Numbered from the stretch's first letter, positions 4,314 to 16,722 are shown. The stretch is DNA of 32,000 nt from Halogeometricum borinquense DSM 11551 (GCF_000172995.2 NC_014729.1:510001-542000), one strand, 5' to 3'. A program made the numbers and translations. Notes: generated from the sequence alone by a model not told the origin.

Positions 4314-6293
4314 TTAGTCGTCCGCGGGCGTCGCGCCGCTACTGCCCTCTTGCTCGTACTGCTCTTTCGTGAGGCGGAGCTTGCCACCCGCAGAGAGGAT
4401 ACGACGTTCGCGCTCGGAGGCGTCCAGCTGTGCCGTGGCTTCCCAGTCGTCGTTCACGCGGATGGTGAACTCCTCTTGACCGGATTCGACGGCCGCTGCA
4501 ACGTCCGTGACGACTTCGACGTCGTCGCCCTGCTCGATCTTCTCGTACGTCTCCTCGTCGATTGCGAGGGGGAGAATACCGAAGTTGAACAGGTTCGCCT
4601 TGTGGATGCGGGCGAACGACTGCGCCAGCACAGCCTCGATACCGAGGTACTGCGGGCACATGGCGGCGTGTTCACGCGAGGAACCCTGACCGTAGTTCTC
4701 ACCTGCGACGAGGACACCGCCGTCGGCGTCCATCGAGCGCTGTGCGAACGTATCGTCCACGCGCGAGAGCGTGAACTCGGAGAGCTTCTCGATGTTCGAG
4801 CGGAACTTGAGGATGTCCGACGTGGCCGGAATGATGTGGTCCGTCGTGATGTTGTCGTCCATCTTCAGGAGCGCTTCGCCCTGAATGTCCGCTTCGAGCG
4901 GCTCGCCAATCGGCGCGTTGCCGATGTTCGGACCCTTGATGAGTTCGTCGTCAACGGCCTCATCAGGCGAGATGAGGTCGGCTTTCGAGCCGTCGTACTT
5001 GTCGGGGAGTTCGACGCCGGGCGCTTCGAGGTCGTCGAGTTCGTCGGCGAGGTCGCGCGGATCGACGATTTCGCCTTTGAGCGCCGCGGCAGCGGCGACT
5101 TCCGGCGAGCAGAGATAGACGTTGTCGTCCTCGATACCGGAGCGACCCTCGAAGTTGCGGTTGAACGTCCGCAGAGAGACGGAGTCGGAGGCGGGAACGT
5201 GACCGATGCCGATACAGGCACCACACGTCGCCTCGGAGAAGTTGACACCGGCAGCCATCATTTCGGCAGCCCAGCCCTGACGGGCGAGGATCTCGGAAGC
5301 CTGCTTCGAACCGGGTGCGACGATCATCTCCGTCTTCTTGTTCACTTCGCGGTCTTCGAGCATCTTCGCGGCCGGAAGGATGTCCTCGTAGCCACCGTTC
5401 GTACAGGAACCGACGATAACCTGCTCGACGGACTCGCCCGCAACCTCGCGGACGGGTACGACTTTGTCAGGCATCGACGGGCAGGCGATGAGCGGTTCGA
5501 GATCCGAGAGATCGACGACGATTTCGTCGGCGTACTCGGCGTCCTCGTCGGGCGAGAGTTCGACGTACTCGTCCTCACGACCCTGTCGTGCGAGGTAGTC
5601 TTTGGTCTCCTCGTCCGTCGGGAAGATGGACGAGGTGGCACCGAGTTCCGTACCCATGTTCGTGATCGTCGTTCGCTCGGGGACGGTGAGCGTCTCGACG
5701 CCCGGGCCGGTGTACTCGAACACCTTGCCGACGCCACCCTTCACGGAGAGACGGCGGAGCAGTTCGAGGATGACGTCCTTTGCGGTGGCCCATTCGGGGA
5801 GCTCACCTTCGAGACGGATGTTGACGACTTCCGGCATCTCGACGTAGTATGCGCCGCCACCCATGGCGACGGAGATGTCGAGGCCACCCGCACCGATTGC
5901 GAGTTGACCGAGGCCGCCGGGCGTCGGCGTGTGGGAGTCCGAACCGAGGAGCGTCTTGCCGGGTGCGGCGAAGTTCTCCTTGTGGACGTTGTGACAGATA
6001 CCGTTGCCGGGACGGGAGAAGTGAGCACCGTACGTCCCTGCCGCAGAGCGGAGGAAACGGTGGTCGTCGGTGTTCTTGAAGTCGAACTGGTACGTCTGGT
6101 GGTCGCAGTACTGCGCCGCCAGTTCAGTCTGCACTTCGTCGAGTTCGAGCGCCTCGAACTGCAGCCAGACCATCGTACCGGTTGTGTCCTGTGTGAGGAC
6201 CTGATCGATCTCGATTCCGATCTCCTCTCCGGGTTCGAGTTCCCCTTCGACGAGGTGGTCATCGAGAATTTTTTCCGTGAGCGTCTGTCCCAT
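4314..6293 (-). CDS. acnA: Aconitate hydratase
   Basis: 659-aa ORF with Fe-S aconitase signatures: GSDSHTPTPGGLG, GSCTNGGYED, NRNFEGRSG, and a swivel-domain C-terminus (AGENYGQGSSREHAA). A TATA-like TTATAAAT at 6320-6327 lies about 30 nt upstream of the ATG. Confidence 0.92.
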   Translation of the reverse strand: MGQTLTEKILDDHLVEGELEPGEEIGIEIDQVLTQDTTGTMVWLQFEALELDEVQTELAAQYCDHQTYQFDFKNTDDHRFLRSAAGTYGAHFSRPGNGICHNVHKENFAAPGKTLLGSDSHTPTPGGLGQLAIGAGGLDISVAMGGGAYYVEMPEVVNIRLEGELPEWATAKDVILELLRRLSVKGGVGKVFEYTGPGVETLTVPERTTITNMGTELGATSSIFPTDEETKDYLARQGREDEYVELSPDEDAEYADEIVVDLSDLEPLIACPSMPDKVVPVREVAGESVEQVIVGSCTNGGYEDILPAAKMLEDREVNKKTEMIVAPGSKQASEILARQGWAAEMMAAGVNFSEATCGACIGIGHVPASDSVSLRTFNRNFEGRSGIEDDNVYLCSPEVAAAAALKGEIVDPRDLADELDDLEAPGVELPDKYDGSKADLISPDEAVDDELIKGPNIGNAPIGEPLEADIQGEALLKMDDNITTDHIIPATSDILKFRSNIEKLSEFTLSRVDDTFAQRSMDADGGVLVAGENYGQGSSREHAAMCPQYLGIEAVLAQSFARIHKANLFNFGILPLAIDEETYEKIEQGDDVEVVTDVAAAVESGQEEFTIRVNDDWEATAQLDASERERRILSAGGKLRLTKEQYEQEGSSGATPADD

Positions 6294-6603
6294 AACGTCC
6301 CGATTTCGACTGTCTACGATTATAAATCCCGCGTGTTTGAGGTCAGACGTATGTTCATTATATGCATATTCTGACCTACATGGACAATAGTGAACGTGGA
6401 CGAGGGCAGGCGATTCGTTTTTCGGATCATGTCAAATTACGGATTAGTGTCTCCTTTCTCGGTTGCAGACTCACGGAAGCGACCCGCGAAAATATTCAGA
6501 CGCTTCGGTACTGTTGTGGCATCATCCACCCAAAATCGGCCATTCTGGCTCGACTGTTTGTTGGAACAAAACAAGTATTACGGACAAACGCAACCAGTGT
6601 CTC

Positions 6604-7002
6604 ATGGATGACTCTCTCGTAGCGAGAGTGTGGGGGGACGTCACCGAACGCGTTGGTGACGACCTACGAGCAGTCACACAGTACGAGGCGACATCGTTCG
6701 CGACTCGAATGCGGGAGGATCTTCGAGACGTGTACGATGCCGACGACAACCAGACGATAGTGGACGATACGATCGTCACGCTATTGAGCGGCCGTGACAG
6801 CGAGCGAACGCTCGAAACCGGTGAGTTTCGCGCATTCGTTCGCGTATTCGACGACGCGTGGATTCTCACGTGGGTCGATGGCCTGCCGAAGAAGTCCGGG
6901 TTCCTCATCTCCATCGAACGAGACGGAGAAACGGCGACGATGAACGACGTAGAGTGGTGTATTCAGTATCTGGACGAAGAGATTGAACCGCTGATAGAGT
7001 GA
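6604..7002 (+). CDS. Conserved-looking acidic hypothetical protein
   Basis: The tracked ORF starts at 6463, but its first 47 codons lie in AT-rich promoter DNA and are basic and odd-looking. The internal ATG at 6604 (MDDSLVARVWGDVTERVGDDL...) starts the acidic part with high GC3. No domain recognised. Confidence 0.6.
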   Translation: MDDSLVARVWGDVTERVGDDLRAVTQYEATSFATRMREDLRDVYDADDNQTIVDDTIVTLLSGRDSERTLETGEFRAFVRVFDDAWILTWVDGLPKKSGFLISIERDGETATMNDVEWCIQYLDEEIEPLIE

Positions 7003-8776: not shown

Positions 8777-10006
8777 ATGTCCAGAAGCCCTTCGCTTCCC
8801 GAACGTCCTCGGCTTGACCTCGATCCCGAGATGTCGGATGCCGAGCGCCTGTCTGCACTTCGGCAGCACTTCGAGCGTCTCAGAGAGGTCAACCGAGAAC
8901 TCGACGACCGTCTGACGGAGGCGACAGACCGTCGTGATGATCTCCAGTCTGAAGTCGATCAACTCAAGCGTCGTAACGAGACGTTGAAAACTTCGTCGCT
9001 GTACATTGCGACGGTCGAGGAGGTCACCGACGATGGCGTCGTCATCAAGCAACACGGCAACAACCAAGAGGTCCTGACGGACACGTCGCCTCACCTCGAA
9101 TCGCAGGTCGAAGCGGGCGACAGAGTGGCCATCAACGACTCCTTTGCCATCCAGACCGTCCTTGACGACGAAACGGACGCCCGCGCGCAGGCGATGGAAG
9201 TCGATGCGTCGCCCGACGTGACGTACGACGACATCGGCGGTATCGACGACCAGGTGCGCGAGGTGCGCGAGGCAGTCGAGGACCCGCTCTCGAACCCCGA
9301 GATGTTCGCAAAAGTCGGTGTCGAGCCGCCGTCCGGTGTCCTCTTACACGGACCGCCGGGAACCGGCAAGACGATGTTGGCGAAGGCTGTCGCCAACGAG
9401 ACGGACGCGACGTTCATCAAGATGGCCGGATCCGAACTCGTCCGGAAGTTCATCGGTGAGGGTGCCCGACTCGTCCGCGACCTCTTCGAACTCGCCGCCG
9501 ACCGCGAACCCGCGGTCATCTTTATCGACGAAATCGACGCCGTCGCCTCCAAGCGCACGGACTCGAAGACCTCCGGCGATGCCGAAGTCCAGCGGACGAT
9601 GATGCAGTTGCTCAGTGAGATGGACGGTTTCGACGACCGCGGCGAGATTCGCATCATGGCCGCGACGAACCGCTTCGACATGCTGGACGAGGCTATCCTC
9701 CGTCCGGGCCGGTTCGACCGCCTCATCGAGGTGCCGAACCCCGACCCCGAGGGCATCGTGAAGATTCTCGAAATCCACACGCGCGAGATGAACATCGCCG
9801 ACGACGTGGACTTCGAGGAACTGGCCGAGGAACTCGACGGCCAGTCCGGTGCGGATATCGCCTCGTTGACGACCGAAGCGGGGATGTTCGCCATCCGCGA
9901 CGACCGTACTGAGGTTCGCCGCGTGGACTTCGACGACGCCATCGAGAAGATGCGCGACGCCGAGGACTCGCGCTCGATTCCGGGGCACACCGACTACCAG
10001 TACTAA
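8777..10006 (+). CDS. pan: Proteasome-activating nucleotidase (AAA+ ATPase PAN)
   Basis: 409-aa ORF with an N-terminal coiled coil (LRQHFERLREVNRELDDRL...), OB region, Walker A GPPGTGKT, Walker B IFIDEIDA and second region of homology (ATNRFDMLDEAILRPGRFDR). A TATA-like CATTTATG at 8745-8752 lies about 29 nt upstream. Confidence 0.93.
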   Translation: MSRSPSLPERPRLDLDPEMSDAERLSALRQHFERLREVNRELDDRLTEATDRRDDLQSEVDQLKRRNETLKTSSLYIATVEEVTDDGVVIKQHGNNQEVLTDTSPHLESQVEAGDRVAINDSFAIQTVLDDETDARAQAMEVDASPDVTYDDIGGIDDQVREVREAVEDPLSNPEMFAKVGVEPPSGVLLHGPPGTGKTMLAKAVANETDATFIKMAGSELVRKFIGEGARLVRDLFELAADREPAVIFIDEIDAVASKRTDSKTSGDAEVQRTMMQLLSEMDGFDDRGEIRIMAATNRFDMLDEAILRPGRFDRLIEVPNPDPEGIVKILEIHTREMNIADDVDFEELAEELDGQSGADIASLTTEAGMFAIRDDRTEVRRVDFDDAIEKMRDAEDSRSIPGHTDYQY

Positions 10007-11111: not shown

Positions 11112-11375
11112 TTAATCCGCGTCGTGCAGTCGAGTGTGTGAGGACTCACAGACGCTACTGCCCGATAGCGGCGGATCCACGAACAGGCCGTATACCAACA
11201 TCGCCACCGACGGCAGCCCGCCGAGACTGACGCCGAAAGCGACGCGGATGTCGGTGATTACGGCCACGAGGATGCCGAGAAGCATCGGGAGCGGGAGGAG
11301 TGCCAACAACCAGTCGTACCGCGATTCGACTGCTGGAACGATAGTCTCACCAGTGGGGCGTTTACTGACACTCAT
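11112..11375 (-). CDS. Small membrane protein (two predicted TM helices)
   Basis: 87-aa ORF with hydrophobic segments WLLALLPLPMLLGILVAVI and LGGLPSVAMLVYGLFV. The overlapping 211-aa plus-strand ORF looks like an antisense shadow. Confidence 0.55.
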   Translation of the reverse strand: MSVSKRPTGETIVPAVESRYDWLLALLPLPMLLGILVAVITDIRVAFGVSLGGLPSVAMLVYGLFVDPPLSGSSVCESSHTRLHDAD

Positions 11376-11502
11376 CCGTACTCACCTCGTTCCCGAATAC
11401 GGACGGTTCCGTAGTAAAGATTACGCCGAACCCGCCGGTTCCTTCGGGGAGACGTGTCGATACGTTACGGAAAACCTCCGAGGATTGGACGCCACGCTTC
11501 GT

Positions 11503-11760
11503 TCAGCGGATTCGCTCCGCTACTGTCACCGCGCAGTACTTGCAACGGTACACCCGGTACGGCGTTCGGGAGTACGCCTTGTTCACCTCGCGCACGCCCT
11601 CTCTCGTCTCGCGTTCTTGCACTCTGACGGCGACTTCGTGTTCCCGTTCGCCGCCACACCGGTCGCACTCTCTGACGACCGCTTCGGGGACGCCTGCGTC
11701 GGTGTCGTGACCTTGGTACGCTATGGTGACGTGGCGTACACCGACATGCGTGCTATCCGT
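11503..11760 (-). CDS. Small zinc-ribbon protein (CxxC-N37-CxxC); start codon unresolved, possibly a pseudogene or non-canonical start
   Basis: Hand translation of the minus frame ending at TGA 11503-11505 gives ...TIAYQGHDTDAGVPEAVVRECDRCGGEREHEVAVRVQERETREGVREVNKAYSRTPYRVYRCKYCAVTVAERIR*. The frame is open up to TGA 11887-11889. The first in-frame ATG/GTG/TTG is the GTG at 11620-11622, downstream of the first CxxC. It is absent from the ORF track for that reason. The 5' end given here is arbitrary. Confidence 0.4.
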   Translation of the reverse strand, partial: TDSTHVGVRHVTIAYQGHDTDAGVPEAVVRECDRCGGEREHEVAVRVQERETREGVREVNKAYSRTPYRVYRCKYCAVTVAERIR

Positions 11761-12039
11761 TATCGCTGACGAGGCGAGTGTCAGCGTCCAGTGATAGTTC
11801 CGGGAGATTATGAGAGAGCCGTAGAACGGGGGACCGACCGCTCGCCCGACAGATTTGTGTCGTTCTTTCGCATGTCTTACTGCTTCTCACACCCGAGAGC
11901 TAGTGGCTACCGTGACGCGAGTCGCATACCGACGATCAACTCCAGTTCCGAGTAAATGCGTTTTGTCGATACGAACCGCAACATCAGTGGGTCTAGTTCT
12001 ATCCCGACAACGTGCCTGATTCGGAGTGCTGAGGGGAGA

Positions 12040-12048
12040 TTTTATTAC
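12040..12048 (+). promoter_or_regulatory. TATA-box-like element for the 452-aa island gene (leaderless geometry)
   Basis: TTTTATTAC is centred about 28 nt upstream of the ATG at 12072, the usual spacing for haloarchaeal leaderless transcripts. Confidence 0.45.
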
Positions 12049-12071
12049 TCTCTGACAGTACCGGACGTATT

Positions 12072-13430
12072 ATGTCATCCTCTGACACCGCTCACTGGTC
12101 TGAGACACTGCGTGTGATGTTGAATGCGTCTTCCACGACAGACTCCGAAGTGACCGCCTTTATCGACGAGACGATACCGGATGGAGAGAACAAACTGTAC
12201 GACAACAAGCGCCAAGCGTTCATCCATGCGGATAGCAGTGACCAAGGCAAGGAACGGAATTTCCGATTATTGAAGCACATTTGTGCCCTTGCGAACACCC
12301 GTGGAGAGCAACGGTACAGGTACCTCTTCATCGGATTCGGTGACTCTGGGGGCTTCATCGGTGCCAGTGATTGGGACGCTAACGGCGGGGAGCACGTGGT
12401 TGAAGTCGATGAAGCTCGTGTTCAGGACCTCCTTTCGGATAGTCTTGACCCGGTTCCTGAGGTTGAGCGCACTGTGCTCACTCAAGATGACAACACTGCT
12501 GCGGTACTCTCGGTTCGGAGGTCGGATTCTCCACCAGTATTGTTTGACACCTCGATAACCACGAGTGGGGGTGCGACCACATTAGTGAAGAGCGGAGTTG
12601 GCTACGTGAGGAAGGGCTCACAGTCGCGCCCAATGCGTAATTCGGACTATAGAGTCATCATCGAACGCCGGGAAGACCTCGTGAACGAGAAGATTGAGGA
12701 AGCGCTCGGTGGGTTGCAGAGGATGGTTGGAATCTCCTCGGACCAACTTGAGAATCTGGAGATATCGGCGACATCAAGCGACGAGGGCGTCCCTATCGAC
12801 GAAATTGTGACGACAGAAGGTTACAGTGACCTCAACAAGCGACTATCCCTATCTGTTAAGGAGTGGAATTCAAGCGGCGAGCTCTACTCGTCGCGCGGGG
12901 CTGTGTACACGATGTTGAAGCGACGCGATGAGCTGGAACTGGACAACGAAAGGTGTGAATTCCTTGCGTGGAGTACCTTGAACAACAATTTCCCGCCAAC
13001 TGAGTGGATTATCCACCACGAAAATGACTTAGAGGATAGTTTGCTCAGCTTCTACCAAGCCCAACTGAATGGCCGCATGATATCCGTATTTGAGGCGGTC
13101 AACTATATGTTAGAGAATGAAAGGGTACTACGCGCCATCAGCGACGATGGCAGTATGGATTTCCAGTCATCCAAGGCAGACACCTACCTTGACTCAATAA
13201 CGGACCCGCCGGTGGAAAAGATTGAGGACCTCACGGCAAGACGGAACCTGAATATCACCGGCCACGATTACCCAATTACCGATATCGTCACCTCTGGTGG
13301 CCCAGTCGAAACGGGGCTGGAAGAAGTGGTTGACCGCCTAATCAGCGATGATGAAAGTAATGACAGGAGCATATTACGAGACATCGAATATACTAGGCTG
13401 GCGCAATACGTGAGTTCGGACCCAGAGTAA
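12072..13430 (+). CDS. AlbA_2 / Schlafen-like (divergent AAA) N-terminal domain protein with an uncharacterised C-terminal half
   Basis: 452-aa ORF with AT-rich codon usage. The N-terminal roughly 200 aa carry AlbA_2-type blocks: ...WSETL..., FRLLKHICALANTRGEQRYRYLFIGFGDSGGFIGAS, AAVLSVRRSDSPPVLF, GVGYVRKGSQSRPMRNSDYRVIIERR. Residues from about 220 to 452 show no motif I recognise. Confidence 0.75.
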   Translation: MSSSDTAHWSETLRVMLNASSTTDSEVTAFIDETIPDGENKLYDNKRQAFIHADSSDQGKERNFRLLKHICALANTRGEQRYRYLFIGFGDSGGFIGASDWDANGGEHVVEVDEARVQDLLSDSLDPVPEVERTVLTQDDNTAAVLSVRRSDSPPVLFDTSITTSGGATTLVKSGVGYVRKGSQSRPMRNSDYRVIIERREDLVNEKIEEALGGLQRMVGISSDQLENLEISATSSDEGVPIDEIVTTEGYSDLNKRLSLSVKEWNSSGELYSSRGAVYTMLKRRDELELDNERCEFLAWSTLNNNFPPTEWIIHHENDLEDSLLSFYQAQLNGRMISVFEAVNYMLENERVLRAISDDGSMDFQSSKADTYLDSITDPPVEKIEDLTARRNLNITGHDYPITDIVTSGGPVETGLEEVVDRLISDDESNDRSILRDIEYTRLAQYVSSDPE

Positions 13431-13940
13431 CACGCGTTCTCATCTGTGGATGTCATTCCGAGGGCGGGCAATAGCTCACTTTACACCGGCGATAGGGATA
13501 CACAGTCAGCCGTTTCTATACTGTCCGGGAGGGCGTGCTTCGTAGTTGTTTAACAACTAAGCAGATGGCCACGGCGGTATCGGCTGAAACCGCAGAAAAC
13601 TGCCGTTTGAGTCGCACCCCGGACTCAAAACACAGAAAGACCGAACTAACATCGACACGGAGTGGAAACAGAAGTACGTACGTACTCATTCCACTTCTAT
13701 AACCAGAACGACAACGACAGTGGTGGTTGACTGGCTGACAGGCAACCACTTGGTCATCGGGGCGGGCCGACTATCTCCCGCCCCTCCCGTGTATACCGTA
13801 CTGACGAGTGCGTAGGACAATTGTGGGACGGCTCAAAGCGCGTTTCCGTACTGCGGATAGCGAGGGAGGCCCCGCCGACCGCCTCCTCGGCGGAAAAAGT
13901 AAATATCGCTGGCTGAAATTATCGTTATCACCGTATTCTG

Positions 13941-14138
13941 ATGACCTATACACCACCAGAAAAAATCAAGGAATTAGCAAAAGAAGCACAAAGCAACCCT
14001 CTGAGAGACGCTTCTCTGCTTCTCCCCCCTCTCAGTGCTTTTGCGTTATCCGCTTACCCAAAGTATGGTGTTTGGGGACTTGTTTTGACAGTGTTAATCG
14101 GCTTAGTTTCAGTATCACTTGCCCAGTATTTTAAATAA
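13941..14138 (+). CDS. 65-aa micro-membrane protein (two hydrophobic segments)
   Basis: MTYTPPEKIKELAKEAQSNPLRDASLLLPPLSAFALSAYPKYGVWGLVLTVLIGLVSVSLAQYFK. This is the most AT-rich part of the window. AAATTAT at 13916-13922 lies about 22 nt upstream. The ORF ends in tandem TAA TAA stops followed by T5 at 14142-14146. Confidence 0.45.
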   Translation: MTYTPPEKIKELAKEAQSNPLRDASLLLPPLSAFALSAYPKYGVWGLVLTVLIGLVSVSLAQYFK

Positions 14139-14400
14139 TAATTTTTATCGCGGGTGTCGGGGCGGCCGATATTGCGTGAATTAATCGCCACGCTTCTGGC
14201 GCGGACACCCACCCCCTATCCAGTGAGGAACTGAAAGCCGCCCGCGCCAATTTCGACGGGGGGAGTCGTACCGCCTTCGGATGATTATGGGCGTAGGGAG
14301 AGAGGTAGCGCGCAGAACATATATCAGATTGGTAGAGTAGTATGGCGCGTTCGCTCCGATAGGCCCGCAAATTGTCTACACAATTGGCTACACAAAACAG

Positions 14401-16218
14401 TTACTTCCCCCAGAAGGGGTCACGCTGTCGGTGTTTATCCAAATATCCAGTCAACGCTTCGAGTTCGTCGGCGGGAATCTCGTCGGACAGTTCCTGTTCG
14501 AGAATCTTCGCGTGTTTCTCGGGCAGTTCCGTCCAGAGTTCGTCGCCCTCCTCGATCTGTCGGCCGACCGTGGGGCCGTCGATGGCGACCGAAACGCGGT
14601 TGCCCGCGCGGGCTTCCGAAACGTCCTCGCCCTGCTCTTGGATGCCGGAGAGTTGGCCGACGCGGGTGGTTTCGTTGCCCTCCCACTTCACGACGTTCGC
14701 GTTGTTTTTCAGCGTCCCCGAGAGGACTTCGACGCCGACGACGGCGGGGCTCGACTGTCGGAAGACGTGATCTTCGAGGATGCGGAACCGGCAGGGTCGC
14801 ATGATCTTGTCCAGCACCGTCTCCTGCTGGGCGCGCTTGCGTTCCTCGACGAACTCCTCGTACTCCTCGATGAGTTGGTAGATAACGTCGTCCTTGAACA
14901 GACGCACGTCGCCCGTTTTCTCCAGTTCGTCCTCGGCGTTGGCGAGTACGTCCACGTTGAAGCCGAGGATGACCTTGTTCTCCATCTCGCGGGCTGTCGA
15001 GGCGACGGCCACGTCGCGCGGGGCAACGTCGCCGACTTCTGCGCGGAGAATCGGGACTTCCGCTTCGCGCAGCGCGTTCGCCATCGCCTCCAAACTGCCG
15101 AGGGTGTCCGCCTTCACGACGACACCCTCTTCTTCGGTATCCACTTCGATTTCGGCCAGTTCGGACTCAACCTCGGCGATAACGTCGTCTACAGGCTGGT
15201 CGCGGACGACGCGAATCGGCGCGCCCGCCATCGCATCATCGAGATCCGGAGCGGCAATTTTGATACCCGCGGCGGCGCGTACCTCTTCGACCTTATCGAA
15301 CCGTTTCTCGGTTCGAATCTCGGCGTTCGGCCGCGGTTGCAGGAGGGCCCGAACTTCCGTGACGATAGGGCCGTTGACACCGCCGACGACGATCGTGTCG
15401 CTCTCGCGGACACTCCCGTCGTACAGGACAACGTCTACTGTCGCACCGAACCCGCGCTCTTCTTTCACTTCGAGGACGGTTCCCGCGCCGGGACCGCCCA
15501 CGTCTACGGCCATCTCCTCTTTCATGTATCGTTGGGAGAGACCCATGAGAACCGCGAGCAAGTCAGGAATCCCTTCGCCGGTCATTGCCGACAGCGGGAC
15601 GACGCCGACGTTCTTCTGGAAGTTCTGCACGCGCCAGTAGAGGTCCGCAGAGAAGCCTTCGTCCGAGAGATTACCGATTATCTCGTAGAGGTTCTGGTCC
15701 AGTCGTTGCCGGGCGTTGTCCGACTGGTTCTCGTACGTCTCCTGAATGGGTGATCCGTCGTTCGGGTTCCATCCGGGCGTCGTGTCAATTTTGTTGGCGG
15801 CGACCACGAACGGCGTCCCGGTTCGCTTGAGGATGTCGAGCGCCTCGATGGTCTGCGGTTGGAATCCGTCGTTAACGTCAACGACGACAATGGCGATGTC
15901 GGCCAGTGCGCCACCGCGTGATCGAAGCGTCGAGAACGAGTGATGCCCGGGCGTGTCGATGAACAACAATCCGGGAAGGTCGAAGTCGTCCGGATTGACG
16001 AGACTGCCGGCCATCTGTGAGACCGTATCTAGCGGAACCGCCGTAGCGCCGATGTGTTGTGTGATCGCGCCTGCTTCGCCTTCCGAGACCGCAGAGCCGC
16101 GAATCTTGTCGAGCAGCGTCGTCTTGCCGTGATCGACGTGCCCGAGAACAGCGACGATGGGGGTTCGGAGTGCGTTCGATTCAGTCGTGGAAGGAGCGTC
16201 GGCGTCGGTGTCAGACAT
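14401..16218 (-). CDS. infB: Translation initiation factor aIF5B (IF2-type GTPase)
   Basis: 605-aa ORF with G1 GHVDHGKTT, G3 DTPGH and G4 NKID, plus the domain II-IV layout typical of aIF5B. A TATA-like TCTATATCGATA at 16241-16252 lies about 28 nt upstream of the ATG. Confidence 0.95.
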   Translation of the reverse strand: MSDTDADAPSTTESNALRTPIVAVLGHVDHGKTTLLDKIRGSAVSEGEAGAITQHIGATAVPLDTVSQMAGSLVNPDDFDLPGLLFIDTPGHHSFSTLRSRGGALADIAIVVVDVNDGFQPQTIEALDILKRTGTPFVVAANKIDTTPGWNPNDGSPIQETYENQSDNARQRLDQNLYEIIGNLSDEGFSADLYWRVQNFQKNVGVVPLSAMTGEGIPDLLAVLMGLSQRYMKEEMAVDVGGPGAGTVLEVKEERGFGATVDVVLYDGSVRESDTIVVGGVNGPIVTEVRALLQPRPNAEIRTEKRFDKVEEVRAAAGIKIAAPDLDDAMAGAPIRVVRDQPVDDVIAEVESELAEIEVDTEEEGVVVKADTLGSLEAMANALREAEVPILRAEVGDVAPRDVAVASTAREMENKVILGFNVDVLANAEDELEKTGDVRLFKDDVIYQLIEEYEEFVEERKRAQQETVLDKIMRPCRFRILEDHVFRQSSPAVVGVEVLSGTLKNNANVVKWEGNETTRVGQLSGIQEQGEDVSEARAGNRVSVAIDGPTVGRQIEEGDELWTELPEKHAKILEQELSDEIPADELEALTGYLDKHRQRDPFWGK

Positions 16219-16435
16219 GAAAAATCACTCCGAGAAGTGTTCTATATCGATACGCAGGGGGCACCGAAGTTAAGTCCATCGTCACGTCCGGACAAGCGCC
16301 AGCGCGAGACGTGAGGACGCGCCGGATTTCGGACAAATCGACGGACAGTCCAGTTTTCCAGACTGCCCAATACGCTTTGATTCCTCCGTCTGTCCCTCTC
16401 ATCGATACGTCTCGCCATTGACTCGCGACCTGTAA

Positions 16436-16718
16436 TTACCAATTTACTATTTGGAAGCGACCAACTAAGTACCAATATATCGCTCTCGGACATCACAGAA
16501 TTACCAATATATTACCACTGCCGTTTTCGCCGGGACCAATCTATGACGCCTCGGGACTGTCCCAGTACCAACTTATTGCGACCCGATCACTAGAACATAC
16601 CAAATTATTACCACACTGTCACTCCCTCATTACCGCCTTATTACCAGCTTGCTACCGCTCGTCGGACGGTCGTCGGACGGTCCCCGTGGCACTTATGTTA
16701 CCGTGGTCGAATACCTCT
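16436..16718 (+). repeat. Array of about 13 same-orientation TTACCAA-like motifs (consensus roughly TTACCAAyWTA) phased at multiples of about 10.7 bp
   Basis: The ACCA(A/C/G) or ACCG core starts at 16438, 16460, 16471, 16503, 16514, 16535, 16567, 16599, 16610, 16632, 16643, 16654 and 16700. Successive spacings are 22, 11, 32, 11, 21, 32, 32, 11, 22, 11, 11 and 46. No reverse-complement TGGTA copy occurs in the interval. Confidence 0.7.
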
Positions 16719-16722
16719 CCTC

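Follow-up and report, generated by a model that had tools for sequence, protein, structure and literature searches.

The window analyzed in this study is a 32,000-nucleotide (nt) stretch of the genome of Halogeometricum borinquense DSM 11551 (GCF_000172995.2, NC_014729.1:510001-542000), and all positions are counted from its first nucleotide. Directly 3' of infB it contains low-GC DNA encoding a 452-amino acid (aa) protein with an AlbA_2-like domain, followed by a hairpin-rich non-coding block and an open reading frame (ORF) for a 65-aa membrane protein. An earlier reading of this DNA (the original prediction) had proposed that these three elements form one horizontally acquired module, similar to compact abortive-infection (Abi) or toxin-antitoxin (TA) modules. 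We located all of the elements where it had placed them and reproduced its hand counts of GC content (51.7% for 12072-12131 and 36.7% for 13921-13980). Windowed GC content was 0.49-0.54 across 11800-14400 and 0.60-0.64 in the flanks, and among 2866-nt windows over the whole 32 kb the lowest value was found in the one starting at 11701 (0.527; mean 0.609, standard deviation 0.027). The GC content of third codon positions (GC3) was 0.614 in the 452-aa gene and 0.348 in the 65-aa ORF, compared with 0.72-0.76 in neighboring genes, which confirms the low-GC island. Its proposed edges held only for the low-GC tract itself; the inserted DNA is larger and also takes in a high-GC gene. The locus has the following features.

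11376-11491, no strand: native spacer between DUF8015 and infB ("type A"), kept to the left of the insert; its last bases are ACCTCCGAGGATTGGAC.
11492-14400, no strand: inserted accessory DNA of about 2.9 kb, directly 3' of the infB stop codon (14401-14403, minus strand).
11503-11724, minus strand: small zinc-ribbon gene of 73 codons, DUF7835 (Pfam PF25205, E = 1e-11).
11725-12071, no strand: divergent intergenic region with a TTTTATTA box and the left copy of an imperfect repeat (11806-11824).
12072-13430, plus strand: gene of the 452-aa protein, a prokaryotic Schlafen (pSlfn) by Pfam, motif, AlphaFold2 (AF2) model, Foldseek and profile match.
12072-12635, plus strand: its N-terminal Slfn/AlbA_2 nuclease domain (residues ~1-188) with E39-x4-D44-x-K46.
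Residues 189-250 of the same protein, plus strand: linker helix and disordered stretch in the AF2 model.
12777-13427, plus strand: helical C-terminal domain (residues ~236-452) in the AF2 model.
13431-13740, plus strand: orphan hairpin-rich spacer, defined by its hairpin count and the lack of any similarity found.
13741-14266, plus strand: independent small-gene unit with 79.6% DNA identity to positions 289-823 of contig L108.
5' region of this unit, about 200 nt, conserved: hairpins at 13759-13784 and 13872-13893, and CCGTACTG at 13796 and 13846.
13941-14138, plus strand: 65-aa ORF with a TAATAA stop and a T5 tract at 14142-14146.
3' region of about 130 nt, plus strand, from the end of the 65-aa gene to 14266: within the homology to L108.
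14267-14400, no strand: right end of the insert, with the right copy of the imperfect repeat (14283-14308) and 61 nt (14340-14400) touching the infB stop codon.

The segment from 11.4 to 14.4 kb is accessory DNA that was inserted in some strains only. Elsewhere in H. borinquense, three assemblies (RZHH01, L104; CP048739, L103; JAXCMF01, L102) and one metagenomic contig (L107) lack it and have an empty spacer of 135 nt. The flanks of the empty site in RZHH01 are 99.7% identical to those of the type strain; the left flank is identical over 950 nt up to 11388 and the right flank over 14401-14606, save for a single mismatch inside the infB stop codon, at 14401. Empty spacers of 112-124 bp from DUF8015 to infB are also present in Halogeometricum pallidum (L098) and in H. 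rufum-like metagenomic contigs (L093/L095). More than 30 Haloferacaceae have the gene order PRC-infB-(DUF8015)-DUF5811-PvlArgDC with only 65-1300 bp from infB to DUF5811, and at the infB locus of none of them did we find the 452-aa gene, the small ORF or the zinc-ribbon gene. For the type strain, independent de novo contigs (L003, L004) contain the insert, and the 452-aa protein of the window is identical to that of the type-strain assemblies and of contigs assembled de novo from that strain's sequencing runs. The empty sites in conspecific strains and sister species thus bear out the proposal that the DNA was acquired horizontally.

The extent of the insert follows from the spacer that it adjoins. 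The type A spacer is homologous to the 112-nt empty spacer of the H. rufum contigs L093/L094/L095 over its whole length (alignment at 74-80%), and the ACCTCCGAGGATTGGAC at its end is the counterpart of the bases that touch the infB stop codon in H. rufum. Relative to this ancestral state the extra DNA spans approximately 11492-14400, and therefore includes the high-GC DUF7835 gene. Compared with the closest empty-site strain the left edge is at 11389, from where the type A spacer departs from the "type B" spacer of the H. borinquense empty-site strains. Both copies of the imperfect direct repeat GATTATG/AGAGAG/GTAG, which had been suggested to bracket the island, exist, but we rejected them as junction markers because both (11806-11824 and 14283-14308) are inside the insert. 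We also considered that the empty allele could be a deletion derivative; in a comparison with the empty-site spacer, the right junction showed no significant homology (P = 0.18).

Within the genus Halogeometricum, the position immediately behind the infB stop codon is recurrently variable. At the equivalent point the H. rufum type strain (L094 8801-10699) carries 2.2 kb of other cargo, encoding a 336-aa HTH_20/DUF7347/DUF7351 protein and a 251-aa protein that matches no family, and H. limi (L096 8501-9823) carries a cytochrome P450 gene and is missing DUF8015. Neither cargo has any sequence in common with the H. borinquense insert. Searches of the window identified no tRNA, Rfam family, integrase or transposase, in agreement with what had been noted before, and the hallmarks of an integrase-type island or provirus (integrase, tRNA, repeat at the type-strain junctions) are all absent. 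The alleles differ in their spacers as well as in their cargo, which suggests homologous recombination rather than site-specific integration. The most likely, because most economical, transfer route of the recombinase-less islet would be allelic exchange, with the conserved genes on either side serving as substrates for homologous recombination.

One further assembly, CP050274 (L002), at first seemed to document such a transfer. Its cassette has no difference from the type strain in 2866 bp (background, 2.4%), and its flanks are 100.000% identical to the empty-site strain CP048739 over 11 kb. The edges of the cassette consist of unalignable junctions (L002 ~9320-9403 and 12269-12343) and a 30-nt direct repeat. 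We initially read this as a recent transfer by homology-facilitated illegitimate recombination, a reading that we gave up. The large-scale structure of CP050274 follows the type strain, in that the cassette is present and the insertion sequence (IS) common to CP048739, JAXCMF and L107 is absent. On either side of the cassette, the empty-site spacer takes the place of type-strain bases nearly one for one (46 nt instead of 45, and 75 instead of 62). The two overwrites overlap by 30 nt, and at the right junction the two sequences form a mosaic. The chromosome is also nearly as long as that of the type strain. Taken with the CP048739-like flanks, these properties make it probable that the CP050274 cassette, like its 30-nt repeat, is an artefact of reference-guided assembly, and no conclusion is built on it here. 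Users of the public assembly CP050274.1 should be aware that it seems to carry reference-derived sequence at this locus and that the cassette may not exist in the organism.

We next turn to the largest gene of the insert. Residues 58-188 of the 452-aa protein match the Pfam family SLFN_AlbA_2 (PF04326, E = 2.1e-9), with a domain of more than 100 aa. In the motif E39-NKLY-D44-N-K46, residues E39, D44 and K46 are invariant across 18 aligned family members with 25-72% identity. The AF2 model (predicted local distance difference test, pLDDT, 78) has two domains. Foldseek matched the alpha/beta N-domain to the AlbA_2 structures 3lmm and 2kyy and to SLFN13 (5yd0) and SLFN11 (7zel), and the best N-domain match of the family profile among solved structures was the Schlafen tRNase CbCash (9ylu, E = 9e-4). 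The C-terminal domain of about 215 aa was modeled with a pLDDT of 90 and a predicted template modeling score (pTM) of 0.85; it is helical with a small hairpin and has no structural neighbor in the PDB or BFVD. No helix-turn-helix (HTH), ATPase or SIR2 domain was detected in the protein. Hence, profile and structure searches placed the N-domain in the SLFN_AlbA_2/Schlafen fold and left the C-domain without a neighbor. Ex4(E/D)xK is the catalytic motif of pSlfn proteins, and the E15A/D20A mutation abolishes phage defense by RorSlfn5 (PMC13056530). With its PF04326 domain, this motif and a second fused domain, the 452-aa protein is a pSlfn by sequence criteria, and the earlier statement that the locus matches no named system has been overtaken by the description of this class in 2025-2026 (PMC13056530).

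Members of the family are few and patchily distributed. When 1.84 billion representative proteins were searched exhaustively with HMMER, only 54 relatives were returned, about 18 of them full-length (~445-455 aa, 25-59% identity), and the named members are nearly all from Halobacteria (Halonotius, Haladaptatus, Halostella, Natronomonas, Halocatena, Haloplanus). Relatives of the 452-aa or the 65-aa protein were not found in JGI metagenome contigs or IMG/VR. A TATA-like TTTTATTA box at 12040-12047, approximately 28 nt before the ATG, fits the leaderless promoter geometry that had been proposed for the 452-aa gene; the upstream region 11725-12071 has no similarity to DNA upstream of the homologous genes.

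The C-terminal domain occurs on a second type of effector. Residues 214-446 match SIR2_2 proteins of other haloarchaea (P0145, P0149, P0151 and P0152; E = 2e-22 to 4e-16), and an hhalign comparison of the 452-aa family with these SIR2 fusions gave a probability of 100% (E = 1.6e-49). The SIR2 fusion proteins match PDC-S25 of PADLOC at approximately 1e-80, an entry that is not known to be more than a computational candidate. Two different effectors on one module are the usual design of single-protein defense systems, for which effector swaps are typical, and the C-terminal domain is presumably a portable module with a sensing role. One of the fusions, P0145, adjoins HerA/mad8-like and methyltransferase genes. 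In L100 (654-7399), a SIR2 fusion is the divergent neighbor of an operon encoding a HerA/mad8-like ATPase, a 455-aa protein without a family and a methyltransferase; this operon and the SIR2 fusion may constitute a methylation-associated defense system.

Several relatives of the 452-aa protein are encoded among defense genes or on mobile elements. In Halostella salina, the gene of P0132 has BrxHII on one side and PglZ/PglX on the other, and KwaA/KwaB and PDC-S26 are close by. P0004 (59% identity) is on a contig with an integrase and phage-type regulators, P0003 (62% identity) is encoded in a same-strand cluster with a type II methyltransferase gene two genes downstream of it, and two more distant members are on megaplasmids. 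Thus, an association with defense genes or mobile elements was seen at the family level, in the handful of contexts that are readable. Together with the motif and the domain shared with SIR2 proteins, the BREX (bacteriophage exclusion) and Kiwa context favors reading the 452-aa protein as a sensor/effector defense protein, much as had been suggested. The Halonotius homologue has a GC content of 0.39 within a locus of otherwise 0.64, and the convergent MatE gene begins 36 bp past its stop codon. As the homologues form sharp, low-GC single-gene islets, with as little as 36 bp to the next gene, the gene alone is the transferable unit. As a separate observation, the H. salina contig L111 (RCIH01000002.1, 5538-20159) is a dense defense island with genes for a PDC-S26-like PDDEXK protein, BrxHII, the Schlafen-family protein, PglZ, a 143-aa ORF, PglX, KwaA and KwaB, and a UvrD/PDDEXK pair upstream; its BREX cluster is interrupted by the Schlafen gene.

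The non-coding DNA downstream of the 452-aa gene is unusually rich in hairpins, as had been proposed. We counted five perfect hairpins (stem of at least 7 bp, loop of 3-14 nt) in 13431-13940, compared with 0.27 ± 0.5 (maximum 2) in 500 dinucleotide shuffles and a mean of 0.70 in the other 510-nt windows of this sequence, the next best of which has three. Within 13431-13740 there are perfect hairpins at 13543-13559 and 13606-13629, besides imperfect ones, and the hairpin at 13723-13749 spans the start of the 65-aa unit (13741). The z score of the minimum free energy (MFE) was -3.7 to -4.0 for the plus strand of the whole block and -1.2 to -1.6 for the minus strand, and -2.3 and -0.8, respectively, for 13431-13740. 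The MFE of the block is by itself unexceptional, because the most extreme control window reached -3.8. Searches of 13431-13740 with BLASTN and TBLASTX against 96 other loci, plasmids and phages gave no similarity, and the same searches returned no decayed genes from the non-coding DNA. We also sought a known RNA family or a tRNA in the block; Rfam and tRNA searches found none.

The homology to L108 covers exactly 13741-14266 (526 nt) and the flanks are unrelated. This boundary at 13741 divides the hairpin block into two unrelated pieces, an orphan stretch of 310 nt and the 5' region of the 65-aa unit. The 310-nt spacer is orphan DNA, possibly a structured 3' untranslated region, an intercistronic region or a recombination scar. 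The 65-aa ORF was found with its double TAA stop and T5 tract. Homologues of the protein are 88% (P0178) and 58% (P0179) identical, and the rates of nonsynonymous (dN, 0.063) and synonymous (dS, 0.31) substitution give a dN/dS of approximately 0.2. Judged by these homologues and substitutions, the ORF is a real gene under purifying selection; it is unannotated, as the H. borinquense copy is missing from the protein database. It had been described as having two transmembrane segments, of which one is a clear hydrophobic helix (residues ~43-63) and the second is weak. Searches of Pfam, PHROGs and PADLOC gave no match for the protein.

The unit of the 88% homologue occurs in metagenomic DNA, where a tRNA-Gly(GCC) gene (L109 812-882; L108 1185-1217) follows about 365 nt downstream, and no AlbA_2 gene is beside the unit in the approximately 1.3 kb of contig that is readable. 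The 5' region of the H. borinquense unit contains a 22-nt imperfect direct repeat (13796-13817 and 13846-13867) with starts 50 nt apart and each copy beginning with CCGTACTG. The L108 homologue retains the CCGTACTG core, which may therefore be a regulator-binding site. The MFE z score of 13741-13940 is approximately 0 on both strands. Overall, the 65-aa ORF represents a small membrane-protein gene of its own, which neighbors the Schlafen gene by chance.

How do these parts relate to each other? The proposal that AlbA_2 protein, structured RNA and micro-membrane protein were acquired together as one Abi/TA-like system is favored by their adjacency on one strand within one insert, the significant hairpin density, the better folding of the plus than the minus strand and the possibility of a joint transcript. 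However, the relatives of the 452-aa gene with readable downstream DNA, including those with 72, 62, 59 and ~31% identity, have neither the hairpin block nor the small ORF; in Halonotius, the start of the MatE gene so close to the stop codon also argues against it. Since no examined relative has the block or the 65-aa ORF, the three-part module is not supported. The check for co-occurrence points the same way, in that the small ORF with its flanks occurs alone beside tRNA-Gly in L108/L109 and no relative carries all parts, and the homology boundary splits the supposed RNA element. We therefore regard a three-part system as highly improbable. A toxin-like role of the 65-aa gene alone, as a type I toxin or addiction unit that stabilizes the islet independently of the Schlafen gene, would be consistent with a small hydrophobic protein under purifying selection, a conserved 5' region with two retained hairpins and the repeated CCGTACTG motif, its presence in another genome near a tRNA gene and its very low GC3 (0.35). 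Against this stand the only three homologous sequences known, the MFE of the 5' region, the empty Pfam, PHROGs and PADLOC searches and an antisense RNA and promoter that are hypothetical, and we consider such a role very unlikely.

The hairpins could also be cis-acting recombination sites, in the manner of IS200/IS605 ends, palindrome-associated transposable elements (PATEs) or integron attC sites, at which an enzyme supplied in trans would insert recombinase-less cassettes behind infB. The hairpin excess is real, one hairpin straddles the boundary of the conserved unit, the spot holds different cargo in three species, and other strains have active TnpB elements of the IS200/IS605 type at a distance of 300 bp. 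Yet there are no hairpins at the outer junctions of the insert, the hairpin sequences are mutually unrelated, BLASTN of the block found nothing in the 96 other loci or the rest of the window, the H. rufum and H. limi cargo shares no sequence with the insert, and TnpA and an integron integrase are absent; this makes the proposal extremely improbable. More broadly, we see very little chance that the hairpin DNA is functional, be it as recombination sites of a recombinase-less cassette swap (an integron- or PATE-like platform) or as a structured RNA that is co-transcribed with the Schlafen gene and, jointly with the 65-aa protein, either regulates the nuclease or serves as what it senses. A different view of the 452-aa protein itself is that of a non-immune nucleic acid-binding regulator in an islet of neutral accessory DNA. 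Database names such as "AlbA family DNA-binding" and "ATP-binding protein" fit this, as do the many PF04326 proteins fused to HTH or histidine kinase-like domains, the lack of a PADLOC match and the approximately 30% of pSlfn genes without defense neighbors (PMC13056530). It sits poorly with a protein that has no HTH or ATPase domain and strictly conserves the catalytic Ex4DxK, with a C-terminal domain common to SIR2 effectors of a PADLOC candidate system, with one member inside a BREX locus beside Kiwa, and with the patchy, low-GC and strain-specific distribution. A regulator of this kind is therefore unlikely.

We conclude that the insert is probably a strain-specific mosaic of unrelated pieces rather than one system, and that its core is a single-gene antiviral candidate of the pSlfn class. 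By analogy to RorSlfn5 and human SLFN11/13, the helical C-terminal domain would be the sensor or regulatory module. Upon detecting a viral cue it might release the N-terminal Ex4DxK nuclease, which could then cut tRNA or other RNA, stall translation and limit the virus yield. The coupling of the same domain to SIR2 NADase-type effectors in other haloarchaea is an effector-swap pattern.

Several observations weigh against this conclusion. For the putative antiviral function and tRNase activity the basis is homology together with genomic context, and the C-terminal domain is cast as a sensor only because of the protein's architecture. No defense genes are encoded within 10 kb on either side of the H. 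borinquense copy, where the neighbors are housekeeping or conserved genes, and the 452-aa protein had no match to PADLOC models at E ≤ 0.01. Defense neighbors are not obligatory for the class; about 30% of pSlfn genes are not defense-associated, and only two of the seven tested pSlfn systems protected (PMC13056530). The plus strand has no run of at least four T between the 452-aa stop codon and the 65-aa ORF (the first is at 14039), so co-transcription of the two genes, and hence some functional coupling in this strain, is possible. This reading does not account for the hairpin excess, which is statistically real. The transfer mechanism is an inferred one, and the sole dataset that seemed to show a recent transfer, CP050274, is probably an artefact.

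The remaining gene of the insert, DUF7835, is a further passenger. It is part of the insert and has a native-like GC3 (0.73), and no relative carries it at the infB locus; neither it nor the 65-aa protein had a match on plasmids. The ORF is called in one annotation only. Its annotated start is ATA, and the first in-frame ATG, GTG or TTG comes only past the first CxxC; with this start the gene may be a start-codon mutant or a pseudogene.

Outside the insert, three assemblies (L103, CP048739, 7608-8960; L102; L107) have an IS of about 1.5 kb with TnpB (Cas12f1-like_TNB) between DUF5811 and DUF8015. The site corresponds to approximately 11135-11150 of the window, about 300 bp from the variable spot, and the TnpB ORF is split in L102 and L107 (220 + 228 aa). 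On the other side of infB, the divergent infB-PRC intergenic region (16219-16722) is low in GC (~0.51) and about 500 nt long, its counterparts in H. rufum and H. pallidum (~270-295 nt) being approximately 200 nt shorter, and is a hot spot of strain differences, many of them at 16299-16624. A second low-GC intergenic dip (~0.50) is located at about 6100-6700, where the type strain and CP048739 have 20 differences in 64 nt (6423-6486).

Haloarchaeal antiviral immunity is poorly charted beyond CRISPR and restriction-modification. This locus draws attention to a small clade of single-gene defense candidates of the Schlafen type in haloarchaea, and the pair of Schlafen and SIR2 proteins provides a handle on how haloarchaeal viruses are detected and on whether Schlafen-mediated tRNA cleavage operates in Archaea. 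What is new is modest, namely the archaeal host and a C-terminal domain common to Schlafen and SIR2 effectors. In addition, the locus documents a recurrent variable spot behind infB and an unannotated, conserved gene for a 65-aa membrane protein.

The insertion site resembles recurrent variable or integration hot spots between core genes, in that the same intergenic position is empty or holds different cargo in close relatives and the cargo is low in GC and strain-specific; it differs from integration hot spots in having no integrase, tRNA target or att-type repeats. The defense-associated sirtuins of the DSR type and PDC-S25 have the C-terminal domain of about 230 aa in their haloarchaeal members, and the layout of N-terminal effector and C-terminal module is the same. 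However, the effector is a SIR2 NADase there and a Schlafen nuclease here, and the 452-aa protein does not match the PDC-S25 models. The human tRNases SLFN11 and SLFN13 have a similar fold of the nuclease domain (Foldseek probability 0.57-0.85) and the same type of catalytic motif, whereas the 452-aa protein has no helicase or linker domain, is only 14% identical and would have a different activation cue. Cash (CbCash, 9ylu) is a prokaryotic Schlafen tRNase like the one predicted here and the best profile match of the N-domain, but it is fused to the Csx15 sensor of cyclic tetra-adenylate (cA4) and works with type III CRISPR (PMC13462974), while the H. borinquense locus has no CRISPR genes and the protein no nucleotide-sensor domain. 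The pSlfn proteins RorSlfn5 and EcoSlfn7 (Perez Taboada et al., Nat Microbiol 2026, PMC13056530) also have an N-terminal PF04326 nuclease, with Ex4DxK as in RorSlfn5, and are encoded by single genes with a variable C-terminal domain presumed to sense infection and with relatives in defense islands or mobile elements. The H. borinquense family differs in being haloarchaeal and known from sequence alone, and this copy is outside a defense island. In place of the Ig-like, DUF262 or HisKinase domains of those proteins, it has a helical C-terminal domain that matches nothing in Pfam or the PDB and that haloarchaea also use on SIR2 effectors.

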